The translations under genes and the position numbers were made by a program. Below, piece after piece: positions 5,378 to 60,905 of a stretch of 64,000 nt of DNA. Origin of the DNA: Bdellovibrionales bacterium (GTDB lineage: Bacteria; Bdellovibrionota; FAC87; UBA2466). The stretch is from positions 2,517 to 66,516 of the forward strand of contig SHZA01000005.1 in NCBI GenBank assembly GCA_009692515.1, written 5' to 3'. Within the stretch, counting starts at the first letter, position 1, and every line of letters starts with the position of its first letter. Below the pieces are notes generated by a model. The model saw only the letters and a list, made by a program, of their open reading frames with translations. It was not told the DNA's origin and did no database searches.

Positions 5378-6287
5378 GTTCGATACCTTTCTGTTCGGTC
5401 ATTCTAATTTCATTTAAAATTTCTACTGGAATTGATAAAATATCTTCCGTAATCGATTCCTCAGTCTCAACCTTTACTTGGGGTTTTGTCTCTGCCGTTT
5501 TTTCAGGCCCCTCTAATCGCCTTATAACCTCTTGGGCTAAGCTTAAATAACTCTGAGATCCTGTAGAGCTAATGTCATAGAGCAACACAGGTTTTCCATG
5601 GCTAGGACTCTCACTCAATTTTACATTTCTTGGAATCACCGTATCAAATACAGTACTCTTGAAGTGACTCTTCACCTCAGTTACCACCTGTCTTGAAAGA
5701 TTATTTCGAGAATCAAACATCGTTAATAAAATTCCCAGCTGCTGCAAATCTTTGTTTAATCCTTTTCGAATAAGCTCTGCCGTATGTAAAAACTGTCCCA
5801 ATCCTTCCATTGCATAATACTCGCACTGAAGTGGAATTAAATAGTAGTTGGCGGCTGTTAAGGCATTAAGTGTTAAAAGACCTAAAGAGGGCGGGCAGTC
5901 GATAAAAATATAATCAAACTTCATGCCTTCAGCTTTTAATAACTCTTCAAAGGCATTTTTTAATCTAGTCTCTCGTGCAATAGCCTGAACTAATTCAATC
6001 TCTGCACCACTCAAATTGTTGTCTGAGGGACAAACCTTTAAAAACTCAAGGTCGGTGGGATAGATGGCCTCTCGCATTGGTAAATCGTCGATTAGAACAT
6101 GATAAATGTTTTTATCAATGAACAATCCTTTTTGAATGCCTAATCCACTCGATGCATTTCCCTGCGGATCAAGATCCACTAATAAAACTTTTTTCTCAGC
6201 AGCAGCAACCGAAGCCGCAAGATTCACTGCTGTCGTGGTTTTTCCGACTCCACCCTTTTGATTCGCAATTGCTATAATGTTTGCCAT
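5364..6287 (-). CDS. parA: chromosome partitioning ATPase ParA/Soj, with an acidic C-terminal extension of about 50 aa
   Basis: The ORF has a deviant Walker A motif ([20 protein letters not shown]). At 307 aa it is longer than the usual ~255 aa because of a Glu/Thr-rich tail. Confidence 0.9.
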
Positions 6288-46890: not shown

Positions 46891-47733
46891 ATGATGATTT
46901 CAATGAAACAAACGATCTTAATATGCGTCAAAGAATTTGATAAGGCCGCAGGTCTTGCAAAAAAGGAACTTACTCAGTGGGCCAAGACACAAAGCATTTC
47001 TATCCTTGAGATCACCTCTGCAATCGAAATTATTTCCGAAAAAAAACAAAAAGAGATTCTACTGGGTGTTGCGATCGGTGGAGACGGAACCTTTCTCACT
47101 TTGGTTAGAAAGTTAGCAAGGAAAGATGCCTTTCCTCTAATGGGAGTTAACTTAGGAAGTCTAGGCTTTATTACAGAGGTAAATCGAGATGAAATGATTA
47201 AGGTGATGACTCAAGCCTTAAAAGGAAAACTGACAGAGGAAAAAAGACCGTTATTAGACGTTGAGGTTTTTAGAAAAAATAGAAGAGTGGCCTCGGGTTG
47301 TGTTTTTAATGATGCGGCTATTACTAAAAGCAGAAACACGACGATGCTGCGTTTTGATGTGAGTGTGGCAGGAGATTTTTTAAATCACGTGCGGGCCGAT
47401 GGGTATATTATTTCGACACCCACAGGGTCTACCGCTTATGCACTGTCCTCAGGAGGGGCGTTGATTCATCCGGGTGTTTCCGCAATCGAACTCGTTCCTA
47501 TTTGTTCTCACTCGCTCTCCTCGCGCCCCATTTTAGTTCCTATGTCAGCTGAGATTGTGATTGAGATGAAGGAGCCCAGAGGAGAGGCCTCTCTAGTTTA
47601 TGACGGGCAGATTAGTTTTGCTTTAGAACAAGGCGATCTTCTTAAGATTCGAGCCAGCAAAAACTTTTTACGGCTTTTGCATCCGCCACAACAAAAGTGG
47701 TCTGAAGCATTACGCAAAAAACTGGGATTATAA
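46891..47733 (+). CDS. nadK: NAD+ kinase
   Basis: The 280-aa ORF has the GGDGTFL and DGYIISTPTGSTAYALSSGG motifs. Confidence 0.9.
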   Translation: MMISMKQTILICVKEFDKAAGLAKKELTQWAKTQSISILEITSAIEIISEKKQKEILLGVAIGGDGTFLTLVRKLARKDAFPLMGVNLGSLGFITEVNRDEMIKVMTQALKGKLTEEKRPLLDVEVFRKNRRVASGCVFNDAAITKSRNTTMLRFDVSVAGDFLNHVRADGYIISTPTGSTAYALSSGGALIHPGVSAIELVPICSHSLSSRPILVPMSAEIVIEMKEPRGEASLVYDGQISFALEQGDLLKIRASKNFLRLLHPPQQKWSEALRKKLGL

Positions 47734-47736
47734 TCG

Positions 47737-49068
47737 GTGAAACCCACTTTGGAATCGGCACTTGATTTTATTAAGCATCACCCTAAACTGGTGATTGCCG
47801 AAGACTATGAAATTTTGTGTCAAAAAACAGAAACTCATTCATGCTATTTCAAAAATGGAGAGGCTATCGAGGAGTCGAGAGATTCCCGTTGGTGGATACA
47901 GATGCGCATTTTGCACAGGAAGCGACTCGGATCCACATCGACCGTATTTTGCAATGAACAAAGTTTAAATAGTATGGTCGATAAAGCCTTTGAATTAGCA
48001 GATAACACTACGGTAGATCCGTGGTTTCGATTTCCGCTTTGGAAGCCAGCCCTTTTGGAAAAAACAACAATAAAAGAGTCGGGATCGGTAGACTCGGCAT
48101 TAAAAGAGGTTTTTTTTGAGACTCTATTTCCGGAGTTAGCATCGCCACCCATAGGACTCGAGGAGCGATATTTTCGACAGCAGGAACACCGAACTCTTCT
48201 GCGGAAAACCGAAAAAATGATCCTGTCAGATGAGAGTGAAATTCAGCAATTTCAATTTGCTTTGGTAAATCGGGGGGCGGGTGGAGAGTTTTATCGACTA
48301 GAAGATATCAGGGGAGGAAGTGCCCCCTTTTTAGCGAAAGGGGCGGTTTTAGATGCTCTACTCAGAAAATCAACAAGATTAAATCGATTACAGGTTGCCA
48401 CAAAGGTGATTCCTGGCAGTTATCTTTTGGCTGGGATTGTGGTGGCGTCGTTACTTAAAAGTATCGAGTCCTATTTTGGCGGGCCATTAGCAGGCCTAGG
48501 GAAAACCCCTCTGGCAAATCTCCTCGGAAAACCTGTTTTTTCAGATGCGGTCTCCCTAACCGATGATGGACTTTATTTAGGCGGTGAAGGCACTAGACCT
48601 TTTGATTGCGAGGGTGCCACCTCTCAACAAACAAAGGTAGTCGAGTCGGGAATCTTAAAAACATTTTTACATGATGCCAACAGTGCAGCTAAATACAATC
48701 GAACGAGTACGGGAAACTTAATAAGGGCCCCAAATAATATTTCCCGTGTAGGTGCCACCAATTTTTATTTAAATCCCTCCACAACGAGGCTCTCCGAACT
48801 ATTTTCAGAAATGAAGGAGGGGGTTTATATCGAAAGTGTGGATCGCTTTCACAGGGAGCTAACGCGAACTGGCAAGTTGGAGATATTGGGTCAGGGTTGG
48901 ATTGTAAAAAATGGAGAGCCCACTGGCCCGCCGCAACAATTGTTATTGACGGTGGATCCTCTAGAGATTCTTAAGGAAATAACTGTGGTGGCAAGTGATT
49001 TAAGTTTTTGGGGGCGGTATGGTGCTCCCTCAGTTTTCCTAAAGAAAATGCCGTTAGGTGAGATATGA
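47737..49068 (+). CDS. TldD/PmbA family metallopeptidase-like protein
   Basis: The 443-aa ORF is conserved in the PmbA_TldD C-terminal region. Confidence 0.8.
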   Translation: MKPTLESALDFIKHHPKLVIAEDYEILCQKTETHSCYFKNGEAIEESRDSRWWIQMRILHRKRLGSTSTVFCNEQSLNSMVDKAFELADNTTVDPWFRFPLWKPALLEKTTIKESGSVDSALKEVFFETLFPELASPPIGLEERYFRQQEHRTLLRKTEKMILSDESEIQQFQFALVNRGAGGEFYRLEDIRGGSAPFLAKGAVLDALLRKSTRLNRLQVATKVIPGSYLLAGIVVASLLKSIESYFGGPLAGLGKTPLANLLGKPVFSDAVSLTDDGLYLGGEGTRPFDCEGATSQQTKVVESGILKTFLHDANSAAKYNRTSTGNLIRAPNNISRVGATNFYLNPSTTRLSELFSEMKEGVYIESVDRFHRELTRTGKLEILGQGWIVKNGEPTGPPQQLLLTVDPLEILKEITVVASDLSFWGRYGAPSVFLKKMPLGEI

Positions 49069-49781
49069 AAACAAAAGCTTTTGGAATCACCAATATTGGC
49101 ATGAAACGCAAATTAAATGAGGACACTTTTCTAGTCGATGACGAGCTAGGACTATTTGTAGTGGCCGACGGAATGGGGGGCCATCTGGGCGGTGAAGTTG
49201 CCAGTAAATTAGCGGCCGAAACCATGCAAAAATTTTGTCGAGAAAACAAGGATCTACCTCCAAGAGATAGACTTGAAAAGGCTGTGAACAGAGCCTGTGA
49301 AGACATTTATACAGAATCAAAAAAAGATGCGGGTGTCGCTGGAATGGGAACGACGGTGGTGGCACTTTTAGTCGATGGAGGCTATGTTTATATTGCTCAG
49401 GTCGGAGATAGCCGAGTGTATCTTTTTGCCCAAGGGGCTGCATGGCAAGTGACCGAAGATCACACGATCGTTCAAGAGGAGATCCGTGCGGGATTAATCT
49501 CTCATGAGGATGCTAGTAACCACCAACACAAAAATGTAATCACACGGTCGGTGGGCTATGAAAAAACGGCCTTAGTAGATATTTATCGACGAAAACTGCA
49601 AATTAACGATACCTTTCTTCTCTGCTCTGATGGCCTTTCTGGTTTAGTAGAAATCAAAGAAATGCTAGAGCAATTAGAGGCTCACTCCATGGAAACCAGT
49701 GCCGAAAAGCTTATCGAGCTTGCCAACTCTAGAGGCGGTGATGACAACATTACCATTGTTCTCTGTCGCGCTATGGAATAG
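49065..49781 (+). CDS. PP2C-family (PPM) Ser/Thr protein phosphatase
   Basis: The 238-aa ORF has metal-binding motifs (FVVADGMGGH ... DGLSG ... GGDDNITIV). It overlaps the upstream gene by 4 nt. Confidence 0.85.
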   Translation: MKTKAFGITNIGMKRKLNEDTFLVDDELGLFVVADGMGGHLGGEVASKLAAETMQKFCRENKDLPPRDRLEKAVNRACEDIYTESKKDAGVAGMGTTVVALLVDGGYVYIAQVGDSRVYLFAQGAAWQVTEDHTIVQEEIRAGLISHEDASNHQHKNVITRSVGYEKTALVDIYRRKLQINDTFLLCSDGLSGLVEIKEMLEQLEAHSMETSAEKLIELANSRGGDDNITIVLCRAME

Positions 49782-55074: not shown

Positions 55075-55776
55075 CTAAAAGCGAGTGCTGCCGAAATAGT
55101 TAGGAACTAATTGCACCCAATCTGAAAGTGACTCCACCGTTTTTCTTGTAGTCGCTTTTCCTAAGGCCTCGGCAAGATCGCTGGCTACCAAGGGTTGTTT
55201 TATTACGATAATAGAAGAGTCTGAGGGAAGGGCGGCTAAATTAATTCTCTCATCTAAAAGAACCACGAGAGAGCGATTCCCCGAAAGAAAGGTCCAATCG
55301 GAGTGAGTTGTTTCCGCAATTAACTGTAAAGAGCTATCTGTATTAACCTTGAAATGAGCTGAGGCAAACCGATCGGCAGTGATATGGGTAAGCACCTGTA
55401 GTTCATCACATAGAATTTGCGATTGCTTAGAGGCCCATTTAAGCGCGCGAGCTTCAGAGCCACTGAGCATTTCAATCGGCACCCTCTTGACATAGGCCAA
55501 GGCCTTTAAAGAGGCGAGAGCAATTCTAAGTCCGGTAAAAGAACCGGGGCCTGAGGTGGTAATAAAGCGCGAGATGTTACCTATCGAAAGACCGCACTCC
55601 TTAAGTGAGATCTCTAATTGAGGAATAAAACGTTCGGAGTGATCACCGGTTTCAGTGATTACTTTAAAGAGAATAAGATCTAGTGCCATTGAGGCTCTTG
55701 ATCGATGAATGGCCAATGTCCCTTGGGAAGAGGACATGTCTAAGCTTAACCAGATTTCATTAAAGTCGTTATTCAT
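55075..55776 (-). CDS. tsaB: tRNA threonylcarbamoyladenosine biosynthesis protein TsaB (YeaZ)
   Basis: The 233-aa ORF has the motif SGPGSFTGLRIALA. Confidence 0.8.
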   Translation of the reverse strand: MNNDFNEIWLSLDMSSSQGTLAIHRSRASMALDLILFKVITETGDHSERFIPQLEISLKECGLSIGNISRFITTSGPGSFTGLRIALASLKALAYVKRVPIEMLSGSEARALKWASKQSQILCDELQVLTHITADRFASAHFKVNTDSSLQLIAETTHSDWTFLSGNRSLVVLLDERINLAALPSDSSIIVIKQPLVASDLAEALGKATTRKTVESLSDWVQLVPNYFGSTRF

Positions 55777-56189
55777 CTAGCGGCGTAGTAACCGTTTTTT
55801 AAGAGGGGTTCAACATCCAAAGAGTGGGAAGCGGTAGAACTACCAAAATTAGACTGTTAAGCAAGGGGAATGCCTAACAAGAGATTTCGGTTGCTTAGGG
55901 GATTGCCATTTTGGGCTACTCTACCGCTCCCTAATTTACGCTCGATTCCGATTTCAGTGGGCTTGCATCTCTGCATCTTTCCCACTCAACAAGTATAACC
56001 CGTTGCGTTACAGCGTTTCAATAGGCAACATTTAGACAGTATTTCTCAAAACTCGGAAAGCACCAAGGCTTCAATGGGTTATTGCGGCCACTGTTTAGAC
56101 ACTGAACGCAATAAAAAAACAATTCAGCTAGTCGTATTCGCACTCTCCTGTTATGCAACGAGTCGGGCACCTCTCCAGGGTTTTTTTAA

Positions 56190-56453
56190 ATGAATGAAGA
56201 CAAGGTAAAAATTAAAATTCTAGATACCCAAGGCAACTGTAAAGAACTATGGGTAGAGGTGGGCTCTAATCTTCGCGAAGTCTTACTTCGGAATCAGTTT
56301 TCCTTATATCAAGGGAAGTTTAAAACATTAAATTGTAAGGGCATGGGAGTGTGTGGGTCGTGTAAAATAATCGTTCGAGAACGTGACGAGGACTGGGAAA
56401 GACGCGCGTGTCAAATTCAATGCTTTCAGGATTTAGAAATACGTTTAAAATAG
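56190..56453 (+). CDS. small [2Fe-2S] ferredoxin-like protein
   Basis: The 87-aa ORF has Cys spacing C-x4-C-x2-C ... C (NCKGMGVCGSCK ... CQIQC), which is typical of beta-grasp 2Fe-2S ferredoxins. Confidence 0.5.
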   Translation: MNEDKVKIKILDTQGNCKELWVEVGSNLREVLLRNQFSLYQGKFKTLNCKGMGVCGSCKIIVRERDEDWERRACQIQCFQDLEIRLK

Positions 56454-56476
56454 AAACTCTTTAAGAGGGTGATGCT

Positions 56477-57145
56477 TTGAAAACAAAAAGTTATTTTCAT
56501 ACCGTAATTGGAACTAGGGAAAAGAATGAGGACTCTTATTTAGCAGAAGACTCTATGGGACTCTACGCCGTGGCAGATGGCATTGGTGGGGGCCTTAAGG
56601 GAGAGGTCGCCTCACAAATGGCGGTTGAAGGATTAAAAAAACATCGTCCTGAAATTCAATCGATGCGAGAAATATTTCAATTATTACAGAAAGAAATTCA
56701 CCAGGAGTCCATGGACACTTTGGGCGAGGCTTTAATGGGAACCACGCTCAGCGCCGTGGAATTAAAAAACAACAAAGCTACGATTTGTCATGTGGGAGAC
56801 TCTAGGGTCTATTTTTTTGATGGCAATGTTCTTCGTCAGATGACCGAAGATCAGGAAATTTACGATGAACACTTAAGGGGTACCGTTCTTAATTCTTACT
56901 TAGGAATCGTATCGGATATTCATCCACTCCGCATTGTGCAAGAGACCATGGTGGTGGCTCCTGGGCAGCGATTTTTAATTGCGAGTGATGGCCTGTTTAA
57001 GCAGATCACTGATATGAGAATTGTAAGTATTATCAGAGAAAATCTAGCGACACCAGAAAGACTGGTTGAGCAGCTTTGCGAAGAGGCCGCGCACCATGAG
57101 TACTCTGATAATGTTACTGTGGTTTTTATTGAGCTTAATGAATAG
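56477..57145 (+). CDS. PP2C-family (PPM) Ser/Thr protein phosphatase (second copy)
   Basis: The 222-aa ORF has YAVADGIGGG ... DGLF motifs. It uses a TTG start with an AAGAGGG RBS. Confidence 0.8.
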   Translation: MKTKSYFHTVIGTREKNEDSYLAEDSMGLYAVADGIGGGLKGEVASQMAVEGLKKHRPEIQSMREIFQLLQKEIHQESMDTLGEALMGTTLSAVELKNNKATICHVGDSRVYFFDGNVLRQMTEDQEIYDEHLRGTVLNSYLGIVSDIHPLRIVQETMVVAPGQRFLIASDGLFKQITDMRIVSIIRENLATPERLVEQLCEEAAHHEYSDNVTVVFIELNE

Positions 57146-57151
57146 GATCTT

Positions 57152-57517
57152 ATGTCGGCAGATCAAGTCGCTAGTATTTCAAAAAAAAAGTTTGAAGAGT
57201 TATCAACGAAAACCTTTTCCGTAAAAATAAAAGGTAAAGTTGTTAAAGGGTTTATTACAAAAAAGAAGGGGCATTATTTTGCCTATCTAAATTTGTGTAA
57301 GCACCTCCCTGTCACCCTAGATCTGAATGACGGAAACTTTTTTGATTTTGAAAAAAAGTACTTTCAATGTCACATGCATGGAGCCATGTATGAAATAGAA
57401 ACGGGGTTTTGTATCGCAGGGCCTTGTCAAGGGGCTCGGCTAGAGATGTTAGAAATTATTGAAGAGGAGTCGAAGCTTTTGATTAAGGTGCCCGCTAAGT
57501 TTGCAGAAATTAAATAA
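57152..57517 (+). CDS. Rieske [2Fe-2S] domain protein
   Basis: The 121-aa ORF has the two Rieske boxes CKH ... CHMH with 21-residue spacing. Confidence 0.75.
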   Translation: MSADQVASISKKKFEELSTKTFSVKIKGKVVKGFITKKKGHYFAYLNLCKHLPVTLDLNDGNFFDFEKKYFQCHMHGAMYEIETGFCIAGPCQGARLEMLEIIEEESKLLIKVPAKFAEIK

Positions 57518-57535
57518 TAAAGGCAGAGATATTTT

Positions 57536-58702
57536 ATGGAAACAAAAAAAATGCGATTTGAAACCCAGTTAATTCATGGTGGAGAACCCTCGCCCCTTAT
57601 CGAACGTGCGATCACGATGCCTATTTTCCAAAGTAGCACCTATGAGATTGGTGCAGATTCTTTGGGAGAAATTAATTACCATGACATTCGTTATGTGCGC
57701 TTGAACAACACTCCAAATCACTTGGCCCTACACGCTAAAATTGCCCAATTAGAGCAGGCTGAATCTGCGGTGGTGACCTCCTCTGGAATGTCGGCGATTA
57801 CCTCAGCCCTTTTGGGTTTGGTGGCCAAGGGAGAGCACGTTCTTGCTCAAGATAATCTCTATGGTGGCACCGTTCATTTTTTAAAAGAATTCTTTCCTCA
57901 GATGGGAAGAGAGGTTACCTTTTTTCCAGCCGATGACACCGCAAACTTAGCACAATATTCCAAAGGCAATACCCGAGCGATCTATGTGGAGTCTACGTCA
58001 AATCCTCTCTTAAAAATTCCAGATCTAAAAGAGGTGGTACGATTTGCAAAAAAACAGGGGTTGCTATCGATGATCGATAATACCTTCCCATCACCCGCAA
58101 ATTTTAATCCGATTCCCTTTGGATTTGATGTGGCTCTTCATAGTGCGACTAAATATTTAAATGGTCACTCCGATGTCGTAGCGGGCGCTATTGTTTCGAG
58201 TAAAGCAATTTTGCAAAAACTGATGCCACTTTTTAATCATCTAGGGGGTTGTTTAGACCCTCACGCCTGTTTTTTACTTCATCGGGGTTTAAAAACGCTG
58301 AGTGTGAGAGTGAGCTATCAAAATAGTTCAGCTCTCAAAATCGCAAAAGCACTTGAGGGTTGTTCTAAGGTTGCCAAAGTGATTTATCCTGGCCTTCCTT
58401 CTCATCCCGATCATGTGAGAGCCCGAGAATGGTTTCGTGGTTTCGGAGGCATGTTGTCTTTTGAATTTGATGGAACTGCTATTCAAGCAGACCAAGCACT
58501 AAAGAAACTTAAAATTCCTTTTTTAGCACCAAGTTTGGGTGGAGTAGAAAGTTTATATGTACGCCCAGCCACCGCATCCCACTCAGGAATTTCAAAACAG
58601 GATAGAGAAAAACTTGGAATCAAGGACAGTTTAGTGAGAGTGTCGATTGGACTTGAAGCTCCTGAAGATTTGATAGAAGATTTCATCGAAGTTTTAAATT
58701 AA
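57536..58702 (+). CDS. Cys/Met-metabolism PLP-dependent enzyme (cystathionine gamma-synthase/beta-lyase or methionine gamma-lyase family)
   Basis: The 388-aa ORF has a PLP-lysine region (DVALHSATKYLNGHSDVVAG). Confidence 0.85.
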   Translation: METKKMRFETQLIHGGEPSPLIERAITMPIFQSSTYEIGADSLGEINYHDIRYVRLNNTPNHLALHAKIAQLEQAESAVVTSSGMSAITSALLGLVAKGEHVLAQDNLYGGTVHFLKEFFPQMGREVTFFPADDTANLAQYSKGNTRAIYVESTSNPLLKIPDLKEVVRFAKKQGLLSMIDNTFPSPANFNPIPFGFDVALHSATKYLNGHSDVVAGAIVSSKAILQKLMPLFNHLGGCLDPHACFLLHRGLKTLSVRVSYQNSSALKIAKALEGCSKVAKVIYPGLPSHPDHVRAREWFRGFGGMLSFEFDGTAIQADQALKKLKIPFLAPSLGGVESLYVRPATASHSGISKQDREKLGIKDSLVRVSIGLEAPEDLIEDFIEVLN

Positions 58703-58745: not shown

Positions 58746-59261
58746 GTGTTTAAAAAAAGTCTAATCGCATTTGTGGCATTGTTTTTAGTAGTAGTGACTT
58801 CGGCAGAGGCCATTGCTAAAAAAGAGATAAAAAAAGGAGCTAAAGTGTTAATCATTGAAACAACTCACGGAAATATTGAAGCTGAATTGTATGCAGAGGA
58901 TGCACCTAAAACAGTGGCGCGCATTCAAGAGTTAGCGGGTAAAGGATTTTATAACGGACTTACTTTTCATCGTGTGGTTCCTGGTTTTGTGGTTCAAGGC
59001 GGAGATCCCAAGGGAAATGGAACGGGCGGATCGGGACAGAATATTCCAGCAGAGTTTAATTCTAAAAAGCATGTTGAAGGAACTTTAGCAATGGCAAGAT
59101 CCGCAGATCCCAATTCTGCAGATAGCCAATTTTATATTTCTTTAGGAACCCATTCCCACTTAGATAATAACTACACCGTTTTTGGTTCTGTGGTTAAAGG
59201 GATCGATGCGGTAAAGAAAATTAAAATGGGCGACAAGATGACAAAAGTTTATATGAAATAG
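58746..59261 (+). CDS. periplasmic cyclophilin-type peptidyl-prolyl isomerase
   Basis: The 171-aa ORF has a signal peptide and the motif FHRVVPGFVVQGGDP. Confidence 0.9.
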   Translation: MFKKSLIAFVALFLVVVTSAEAIAKKEIKKGAKVLIIETTHGNIEAELYAEDAPKTVARIQELAGKGFYNGLTFHRVVPGFVVQGGDPKGNGTGGSGQNIPAEFNSKKHVEGTLAMARSADPNSADSQFYISLGTHSHLDNNYTVFGSVVKGIDAVKKIKMGDKMTKVYMK

Positions 59262-59278: not shown

Positions 59279-59572
59279 TTAATCTAAAAGATGCGAAGGC
59301 TTCTCAACCTTAAATTTTTCTAAAAGGGTGAAGAGGCCTTCCTCATTTTCAGCGACCACTTCAATACAGGAGCAAATCCAAACCCAAGCGGTTCCCACCT
59401 TTTTTGTACTAAATTGATAGACCGCAGAACGTGAGGGAGTATACACCACCTCGATGGCACGACGATAACCATCACCTGGTTTTTCTAGCTGGATATCTAA
59501 GTTAGAAACCTCTCGACGAATATCTGTAAGATTTTCTGTATTTTGTCGCCGTATAATATAACGCATCGCCAT
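59279..59572 (-). CDS. hypothetical protein
   Basis: The 97-aa ORF has no recognisable motif. It is divergent from the RRM gene. Confidence 0.35.
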   Translation of the reverse strand: MAMRYIIRRQNTENLTDIRREVSNLDIQLEKPGDGYRRAIEVVYTPSRSAVYQFSTKKVGTAWVWICSCIEVVAENEEGLFTLLEKFKVEKPSHLLD

Positions 59573-59897: not shown

Positions 59898-60905
59898 GTG
59901 TCCAAAAAACTATATGTAGGTAATTTAAGTTACGAAGTTACCGAAGAAGAACTATCTCAATTATTCGGCCAGTGTGGCCAAGTGGTTGAAGCGCGTATTA
60001 TCAAAGATAAATTTTCAGGTCGCTCCAAAGGATTTGGATTTATAGAGATGCCCAATGACGATGAGGCCACTCATGCGATCGATCGCATGAGAGGTTATGA
60101 CCTTAAGGGTAGGCCCTTAATGGTGGATGAAGCCAATGAACGCCCTGAAGGGGGTAGCAACGGGGATCGCGGAGGTTATGAAGGCGGAGATCGTGGGGGC
60201 CGTGGCGGTGGAAATAGAGGTGGCCGTGGCGGCGGAGATCGCGGCGGTCAAGCTAGAGGTTATGGCGGCGGCGGAGATCGCGGCGGCCAAGGTGGAGGTT
60301 ATGGCGGCGGCGGAGATCGCGGCGGCCAAGGTAGAGGTTATGGTGGCGGCGGAGATCGCGGCGGCCAAGGTGGAGGTTATGGCGGCGGCGGAGATCGCGG
60401 CGGCCAAGGTGGAGGTTATGGCGGCGGCGGAGATCGCGGCGGCCAAGGTAGAGGTTATGGCGGCGGCGGAGATCGCGGCGGCCAAGGTGGAGGTTATGGC
60501 GGCGGTGGAGATCGCGGCGGCCAAGGTAGAGGTTATGGCGGCGGTGGAGATCGTGGCGGCCAAGGCGGAGGTTATGGCGGCGGTGGAGATCGCGGCGGTC
60601 AAGGCGGAGGTTATGGCGGAGGTTATGGCGGAGGCGGAGATCGTGGCGGCCAAGGCGGAGGTTATGGTGGCGGCGGCGGAGATCGCGGCGGCCAAGGTAG
60701 AGGTTATGGCGGTGGCGGAGATCGCGGTGGCCAAGGCGGAGGTTATGGCGGCGGTGGAGATCGTGGCGGTCGTAGTGGGAGTGATCCCGGTGGCCGTAGT
60801 GGCGGCGATCGAAATCGTAGCGACCGAGAGGATCGAGGCAATGACGGGAATCGCGGTCGTGGAGGCAGTGGTGGCGACCATGATGATGAAGGTGGCAACT
60901 ACTAA
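59898..60905 (+). CDS. RRM-domain RNA-binding protein with a ~250-aa Gly/Arg/Tyr-rich repeat tail
   Basis: The ORF starts with GTG after an AGAGAGG RBS. It has RNP-2 (LYVGNL) and RNP-1 (KGFGFIEM) followed by about 13 tandem 13-aa units (GGDRGGQG[G/R]GYGG). Confidence 0.85.
   Translation: MSKKLYVGNLSYEVTEEELSQLFGQCGQVVEARIIKDKFSGRSKGFGFIEMPNDDEATHAIDRMRGYDLKGRPLMVDEANERPEGGSNGDRGGYEGGDRGGRGGGNRGGRGGGDRGGQARGYGGGGDRGGQGGGYGGGGDRGGQGRGYGGGGDRGGQGGGYGGGGDRGGQGGGYGGGGDRGGQGRGYGGGGDRGGQGGGYGGGGDRGGQGRGYGGGGDRGGQGGGYGGGGDRGGQGGGYGGGYGGGGDRGGQGGGYGGGGGDRGGQGRGYGGGGDRGGQGGGYGGGGDRGGRSGSDPGGRSGGDRNRSDREDRGNDGNRGRGGSGGDHDDEGGNY
60228..60776 (+). repeat. 39-bp near-perfect tandem repeat array, coding (about 13-14 units)
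   Basis: The unit ggcggcggagatcgcggcggccaaggt[g/a]gaggttat repeats head-to-tail with only occasional single-base changes. Confidence 0.85.

Follow-up and report, generated by a model that had tools for sequence, protein, structure and literature searches.

We analysed a stretch of 64,000 nucleotides from a Bdellovibrionales bacterium (GenBank assembly GCA_009692515.1, contig SHZA01000005.1, positions 2,517 to 66,516), called the window here, in which five genes follow one another closely on the plus strand. The first encodes an 87 amino acid mini [2Fe-2S] ferredoxin-like protein, which we call Fdx87 (56190-56453). It is followed by a PP2C/PPM serine/threonine phosphatase of 222 amino acids with a TTG start (56477-57145), a soluble Rieske-type ferredoxin of 121 amino acids with a predicted [2Fe-2S] cluster (57152-57517), a pyridoxal 5'-phosphate (PLP) enzyme of cysteine and methionine metabolism with 388 amino acids (57536-58702) and a cyclophilin-type peptidyl-prolyl isomerase of 171 amino acids with a GTG start (58746-59261). 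The spacers between these co-directional genes are, in order, 23, 6, 18 and 43 bp long, and all five starts have a Shine-Dalgarno-like motif just upstream. An earlier note on this DNA had described such a string with spacers of 6-43 bp, and its open reading frames (ORFs), spacers and four Pfam families were borne out.

Judging from the comparison with related genomes, we lean towards regarding the five genes as a genuine operon of mixed function, and not as a dedicated five-part pathway, which is specific to the Bdellovibrionota and found there in metagenome-assembled genomes (MAGs) of the Bdellovibrionaceae/Pseudobdellovibrionaceae type. The window carries a reduced form of this operon, as it holds neither the DUF2203 gene nor the DAO-like gene that are present in relatives. 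Literature searches on Bdellovibrio together with PP2C or Rieske, and on DUF2203, returned nothing relevant, and we did not find the arrangement described. It is undescribed but unremarkable, and its proteins are uncharacterized subfamilies of familiar protein kinds.

Gene order and gene content in related genomes

A scan of a genome collection with the Rieske alignment led to 41 loci, which were searched with the window proteins by tblastn. A common gene order was found in all 27 loci from Bdellovibrionota genomes: ABC permease, ABC auxiliary protein, tsaB (minus strand), Fdx87, PP2C, Rieske, PLP enzyme, cyclophilin, an orphan of 97 amino acids (minus strand), an RRM protein and a DUF155 protein (minus strand). 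The reciprocal scan of metagenomes with a narrower Fdx87 alignment added 16 loci of identical order, and the loci reached via PP2C homologs matched it too, so that orthologs of these genes are co-localized in a total of about 50 Bdellovibrionota loci. One locus with the cluster, L016, carries the label Bdellovibrio sp. ZAP7, a cultured relative. Across 45 loci the spacers range from -8 to about 50 bp, with -4 and -8 being frequent. Because the spacers are small or overlapping and the order is the same across loci, the predicted operon organisation is old and stable. The flanks, that is the ABC transporter, tsaB, the 97 amino acid orphan, the RRM protein and DUF155, are equally syntenic, and the conserved neighbourhood comprises about 11 genes as a whole. 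Since these flanking genes are differently oriented and equally conserved, synteny is general in this lineage and not specific to the five genes.

Within this stable order the gene content changes. The constant part is PP2C-(DUF2203)-Rieske with the cyclophilin downstream, and the mini-ferredoxin, the PLP enzyme, DUF2203 and the DAO-like protein are accessory. The PLP gene is absent in five loci (L004, L008, L010, L012 and L082) and Fdx87 in two (L082 and L085); L082 is the most reduced locus, with a 20-nt overlap between its called PP2C and Rieske genes. A DUF2203 gene of about 120 amino acids occupies the gap between PP2C and Rieske in about 20 loci and often overlaps the Rieske start by 4 nt. 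In nine relatives a very divergent DAO-like ORF (334-357 amino acids) directly follows and overlaps the Rieske gene; it also runs 4 nt into the following PLP gene in three loci and is separated from that gene by a 5-bp gap in L011. Examples of these inserted DUF2203 and DAO-like genes are located at 5634-5999 and 6387-7391 in L006, 1619-1975 in L004, 6308-7381 in L010 and 6323-7342 in L012. PDB and NCBIfam searches gave no informative match for the DAO-like protein, DUF2203 or the 97 amino acid orphan.

Two loci, L010 (3778-4440) and L087 (1310-1909), have a protein-L-isoaspartate O-methyltransferase (PCMT) gene between Fdx87 and a structured RNA described below, and PCMT is the first gene of the string there. 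In L027 the string is split into Fdx87-X-PP2C and DUF2203-Rieske-PLP-cyclophilin, with 3.6 kb between the two parts that include a LysR gene. A lone PP2C, 45% identical to the one of the operon, was found in L080 (6001-6741) and L081 (2187-2927), without Fdx87, Rieske or the structured RNA. Its neighbours are integrase and transposase genes and a DUF6029 gene, a setting that points to relocation or to horizontal transfer.

Two of the flanking genes have features of their own. The 97 amino acid ORF (59279-59572, minus strand) is convergent with the cyclophilin gene and is conserved with 41-75% identity in most related loci; it had no Pfam, NCBIfam or PADLOC match. The RRM-domain RNA-binding protein (59898-60905, plus strand) has a long Gly/Arg/Asp/Tyr-rich tail. 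A 39-nt unit repeated 13.5 times in tandem (GGDRGGQGxGYGG repeats) encodes this tail, and in the array, at 60228-60769, the local GC content rises to 0.49.

Proteins of the five-gene string

None of the five proteins received an equivalog-level assignment from NCBIfam. The Rieske protein has a Pfam Rieske score of 39.6 bits, above the gathering cut-off, and its ligands C49-K-H51 and C73-H-M-H76 are invariant in 21 homologs. Two extra cysteines, C87 and C92, are also invariant in the family; they stand on either side of the Gly-Pro in the 'Pro loop' (GxCxxGPC) and may form a disulfide or an additional metal site. The AlphaFold2 (AF2) model has a predicted local distance difference test (pLDDT) score of 84.9, and all 49 PDB matches that Foldseek returned for it at E<=1e-3 are Rieske domains, headed by the Rieske-type ferredoxin components of the dioxygenases for carbazole, naphthalene and biphenyl, with a target-normalised TM-score of about 0.7-0.76. 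The predicted fold is that of a soluble electron-carrier-type ferredoxin, and the assignment as a Rieske-type ferredoxin with CKH...CHMH ligands, which the earlier note had read from the sequence, is supported by the Pfam match, the invariant ligands and the model.

The protein shares its size, the CxH...CxxH ligands and a superposable predicted structure with the Rieske ferredoxins of three-component aromatic-ring oxygenases (CarAc, BphF/BphA3, the naphthalene dioxygenase ferredoxin and T4moC). It differs from them in being just 14-19% identical, in the additional invariant C87 and C92 and in its neighbourhood. The domain scan for neighbouring genes, which covered 42.9-61.8 kb of the window, found no oxygenase alpha subunit and no NAD(P)H reductase, and neither was found in the related loci with called genes. 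The family was retrieved solely from Bdellovibrionota and Verrucomicrobia MAGs. The Verrucomicrobial homologs (37-41% identity) have no operon partner nearby, and the glycosyltransferase-, Trm112- and LarC-like ORFs that we read from the sequence beside them are uninformative. No fusion proteins were present among 52 Rieske and 261 PP2C homologs.

Fdx87 stays below every Pfam cut-off. The best-scoring model is Fer2_4 with 19.7 bits (cut-off 22.8), followed by Fer2 with 17.3 (cut-off 21) and DHODB_Fe-S with 16.2 bits; the Fer2 cut-off is passed by the family members P0071, P0076, P0079 and P0082. The candidate ligands are C49, C55, C58 and C74, none of which varies in a set of 18 diverse family members, while C78 does. 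These four form the motif C49-x5-C55-x2-C58-x15-C74 within GxGxCGxC. The small 2Fe-2S ferredoxin of the earlier note therefore stands as regards its four conserved cysteines, but the motif is C-x5-C-x2-C and not Cx4Cx2C as stated there. The AF2 model was poor (pLDDT 54.7, with the cluster loop below 50) and unusable for a fold search that would bear on a beta-grasp fold. In an exhaustive search with a profile, the close family came to 22 representative clusters (E<=1e-10), and generic [2Fe-2S] domains made up the tail behind it. Fdx87 resembles small Fer2/Fer2_4 proteins (plant- and vertebrate-type ferredoxins, HcnA-like subunits and the C-terminal cluster domain of PyrK) in its C-x5-C-x2-C...C pattern and its length of about 85 amino acids, but differs from them in its sub-threshold scores, in the fourth cysteine that follows after just 15 residues and in its small close family. 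We regard it as a candidate divergent member of the Fer2 superfamily and a putative [2Fe-2S] protein.

Further Fdx87-like matches with 30-44% identity were found in the loci L059-L077. In four of them (L060, L063, L066 and L074) the distant mini-ferredoxin relative is encoded directly downstream of cysD- and cysN/APS-kinase-like genes, as read from the ORFs; in L060, L066 and L074 it has 101 amino acids and is 30-32% identical to Fdx87, and in L060 (3178-6300) the cysD/cysN-APS-kinase-type genes were confirmed with Pfam. This is an independent association of this protein type with sulfur metabolism. On two contigs of higher GC content (L079 4333-6360 and L058 1766-3123) a Fer2-type mini-ferredoxin relative is divergent to a calcineurin-like metallophosphoesterase gene. 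This neighbourhood is a loose parallel to the pairing of ferredoxin and phosphatase genes and may be a coincidence.

The phosphatase is above the cut-offs of Pfam PP2C (47.7 bits, cut-off 20.3), PP2C_2 (43 bits, cut-off 24) and SpoIIE. Its motifs were positioned by alignment to PDB 5d2u, the top-scoring PPM phosphatase among the tPphA-type matches. The metal-binding aspartates D19, D34, D171 and D211 are all present, in the motifs NED (17-19), ADGIGG (33-38), SDGL (170-173) and SDN (210-212). The nearest solved structures by PDB sequence match are tPphA, PppA, PstP and Stp1 (E 1e-16 to 1e-10), and most of the 261 homologs detected at E<=1e-20 are about 221 amino acids long. The cut-off of the Stp1/IreP equivalog (NCBIfam: NF033484) was not reached, with 128.1 bits against 230. 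With the bacterial PPM/PP2C phosphatases tPphA, PstP, Stp1/PrpC and PppA the protein has the fold family and the four metal-binding Asp motifs in common, but it is shorter than these, at 222 amino acids, and no Hanks kinase gene adjoins it. In stp/stk loci, phosphatase and Hanks kinase genes are typically paired. There are no protein kinase, FHA or STAS genes among the genes scanned around the operon (42.9-61.8 kb).

A second PP2C paralog is encoded about 7 kb upstream at 49065-49781 (plus strand). It has 238 amino acids and is 33% identical to the operon PP2C. The first bases of its gene overlap the 3' end of a PmbA/TldD-like gene (47737-49068), and that gene in turn follows one for an NAD kinase (46891-47733). 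The setting of this paralog indicates that a PP2C gene within a string of unrelated housekeeping genes, and overlapping neighbours, are usual in this genome. One protein of 385 amino acids (P0283) was considered as a possible fusion of Fdx87 and PP2C. We rejected it, as the gene call had been extended too far: the N-terminal part runs antisense over tsaB and has no similarity to Fdx87. As an anti-phage defence system the locus was likewise discarded: PADLOC gave one marginal PP2C match only (E 1.8e-4), in which no single stretch passed by itself.

The PLP enzyme matches the Cys/Met metabolism family (Pfam: PF01053) with 405.6 bits across profile positions 1-378 of 381, and the PLP-binding lysine K206 lies inside the SATKY motif (203-207). 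Its full-length match and conserved lysine motif agree with the earlier description as a Cys/Met-metabolism enzyme and are shared with cystathionine gamma-lyase (CGL), methionine gamma-lyase (MGL) and cystathionine gamma-synthase (CGS). It differs from these in being far below all NCBIfam equivalog cut-offs: for CGL, MGL, CGS, cystathionine beta-lyase and O-acetylhomoserine sulfhydrylase the best score was 333.3 bits against a cut-off of 594, and all 25 listed matches were below their cut-offs. The PDB matches to CGS, CGL and MGL are equal in score. By sequence the enzyme is of the cystathionine gamma-lyase, cystathionine gamma-synthase or methionine gamma-lyase type, and a specificity is not assignable.

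The cyclophilin belongs to Pro_isomerase (Pfam: PF00160) with 153.7 bits (cut-off 21.7), and its best NCBIfam match is PpiA, under the cut-off. Because its N-terminus, VFKKSLIAFVALFLVVVTSAEA, reads as a signal-peptide-like segment, the protein is probably exported, PpiA-like and periplasmic.

A structured RNA on the opposite strand

The intergenic region of 413 bp between tsaB and Fdx87 is conserved at the nucleotide level, as detected with nhmmer, in loci whose proteins are just about 50% identical. It holds two conserved elements, both of which are on the minus strand. One is a structured RNA of about 115 nt (55818-55933), supported by a covariance model, the nhmmer conservation and per-sequence folds. 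The other (about 55990-56035) contains a sigma-70-like promoter found in a promoter scan (55992-56021), which is directed into the structured RNA and tsaB, with the -35 box TTGAAA at 56021-56016 and the -10 box TATACT at 55997-55992. The promoter columns AAGTATAAC...TTCAATATACAnnnTGTATACAG are invariant or nearly so across 22 loci, and in relatives a conserved GTATAC-type palindrome adjoins the promoter.

The fold consists of a long outer stem, a GGAC/GUCC helix and an inner hairpin with C-rich unpaired stretches, and ends in a minus-strand U-run. The C-rich single-stranded consensus is ACCCCCGA and that of the hairpin loop UACCCCUC, with the window copy being more diverged. We built the covariance model R1 from nine minus-strand copies. 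With this model each locus yields a single copy, which in all cases lies opposite to the operon strand, and the window copy scores 42.7 bits (E 1.6e-8). Plus-strand echoes were seen in two loci of one scan and in four of another, with 19-27 bits versus 63-120 bits on the minus strand of the same loci. In the R1 alignment 95.5% of the cells are paired and 20 of the 25 pairs have compensatory changes, against at most 6 in controls with slid partners. Many of the pairs are G:U on the minus strand and would be A-C mismatches if read on the plus strand. This strand analysis, which places the RNA on the minus strand, supersedes a plus-strand fold of the 413-nt intergenic region with a z-score of -2.35.

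The earlier note had claimed a long structured leader upstream of the five genes. The structured element is real in the sense that it is conserved and covarying, but it is not a leader of the operon, because it is encoded on the minus strand and transcribed away from the operon towards tsaB. The operon's own 5' untranslated region must lie within the approximately 150 non-conserved bases before 56190. A SAM riboswitch or another sulfur riboswitch as operon leader was considered and rejected, as Rfam scans of the whole window and permissive scans of the intergenic region found none. With Rfam 15 no match in the window reached the gathering score, and the permissive scan of 55600-56400 gave only a chance match to SraC (E 0.66). 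The attack-phase small RNAs (sRNAs) of Bdellovibrio are listed by HD100 coordinates (PMC3627812) and are not mappable to this locus.

The start of tsaB is 42 nt downstream of the structured RNA. From its position and strand, the RNA would be either an sRNA or the 5' leader of tsaB, in a divergent transcription unit on the tsaB side. Its length of about 115 nt, the exposed C-rich stretches, its own promoter and the terminal stem with U-run are features shared with C-rich-loop sRNAs of the RsaE/RoxS and CcsR types, which pair with Shine-Dalgarno regions. It differs from them in that it matches no Rfam family and may be a cis-acting tsaB leader.

Weighing the possible functions

From their family membership, Fdx87 and the Rieske protein would act as small soluble one-electron carriers, whose partner enzyme would be encoded elsewhere or, in relatives, would be the adjacent DAO-like protein; the redox sub-set of the operon would then consist of these two proteins, joined by DUF2203 and the DAO-like protein in relatives. 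The PLP enzyme would catalyse gamma-elimination or replacement on cystathionine, homocysteine or methionine, an activity that would suit a predator feeding on the amino acids of its prey. PP2C may dephosphorylate targets of Hanks-type kinases that are encoded elsewhere; it would be expressed together with the redox proteins and the lyase but need not act on them. The exported cyclophilin would act independently. We infer the electron-carrier roles and the sulfur amino-acid catabolism from family membership alone.

A functional coupling between the phosphatase, the iron-sulfur proteins and the lyase would follow from the proposal of the earlier note, a redox-sensing or sulfur-metabolism module regulated by dephosphorylation. 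Spelled out, the five (or the first four) proteins would form one integrated module, in which PP2C would control the C-S lyase or the Fe-S proteins by dephosphorylation. Neither of the two outcomes that the note named as refuting it was seen, since the orthologs are co-localized in other genomes and the Cys/His ligands are conserved among homologs. The tight and conserved operon with its frequent stop/start overlaps, the conserved Fe-S ligands and, as a second and independent sulfur association, the distant mini-ferredoxin (30-32% identity) after the cysD-cysNC sulfate-activation genes speak for this proposal. However, the rest of the string persists where the PLP gene (five lineages) or Fdx87 (two) is missing, the partners are not co-localized outside the syntenic block, the scanned region has no gene for a kinase or for an FHA or STAS phospho-acceptor, the cyclophilin appears to be exported and the flanks are conserved to the same degree. 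Given this varying content, the equal synteny of the flanks and the lack of a kinase gene nearby, we found no support for the proposal beyond the predicted co-transcription and consider it distinctly unlikely. A narrower pairing would have PP2C and Rieske act together as a phosphatase switch that responds to redox state, with DUF2203 as a bridge in the loci that carry it and the other genes as passengers. This is also unlikely, though it draws on the sole adjacency kept in essentially all loci, including the overlapping genes of L082, and on the 4-nt overlap of DUF2203 and Rieske in many loci. Against this pairing, PP2C lies 3.6 kb away from DUF2203-Rieske in L027 and stands alone as the 45% identical copy in L080 and L081, the Verrucomicrobial Rieske homologs have neither PP2C nor DUF2203 nearby, none of the 52 Rieske and 261 PP2C homologs is a fusion, and gene overlap is common in this genome even across unrelated functions.

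The operon could further be the remnant of a heteromeric amino-acid dehydrogenase or oxidase, from which the flavoprotein was lost in the window. In enzymes of the HcnABC, opine-oxidase and D-hydroxyproline-dehydrogenase types, a DAO-type flavoprotein is joined by a small [2Fe-2S] subunit of the Fer2_4 type, and DAO-Rieske fusion proteins also exist (YhfW-like), of which the locus could be a split version. The position of Fer2_4 as the top Pfam model for Fdx87 and the DAO-like ORF after and overlapping the Rieske gene in nine relatives fit such an origin. The DAO-like proteins themselves fit it poorly, since their matches to DAO (Pfam: PF01266) are weak and C-terminal (two scores of 28.7 and 29.5 bits where the cut-off is 27.9, with no match for L010), they have no convincing PDB or NCBIfam relative and the sequences that we read have no obvious GxGxxG motif. 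In contrast to HcnABC-like dehydrogenases, the DAO-like gene adjoins the Rieske gene and never Fdx87, and most loci, the window among them, lack it. We regard this origin as very unlikely.

Several points also weigh against a mixed-function operon. The adjacency of PP2C-(DUF2203)-Rieske, often with a stop/start overlap, fails only in L027 and at the lone PP2C of L080 and L081, and such persistence is also expected of a functional pair. The comparison genomes are from one lineage with high synteny, in which conservation cannot separate selection for the operon from slow rearrangement. Moreover, among the genes scanned at 42.9-61.8 kb no oxidoreductase turned up as a partner for the two Fe-S proteins, and so as an endpoint for their putative electron-carrier role.

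If the five genes are merely a transcription unit of mixed function, as we favour, the finding matters little and would add Rieske, mini-ferredoxin and PP2C subfamilies that are specific to Bdellovibrio-like predators. The gain is then a corrected picture of the locus, namely a variable operon whose longer form holds DUF2203 and a DAO-like gene. The covarying and unannotated RNA beside tsaB is the most novel by-product and a candidate addition to RNA family databases.

The pairing of PP2C and Rieske would matter more if it is functional, since we know of no description of a bacterial PPM phosphatase under iron-sulfur-dependent control. In the most far-reaching form of this idea, PP2C of predatory Bdellovibrionota would be gated by the redox state of a Rieske cluster that the mini-ferredoxin feeds, and the divergent RNA of about 115 nt with its C-rich loops would be a new lineage-wide family of regulatory sRNAs. 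We consider the two parts jointly to be quite improbable. The switching of the predator life cycle is poorly understood; if true, a redox-gated phosphatase would connect phospho-signalling with the predator's metabolic state, such as the catabolism of sulfur amino acids during prey digestion.

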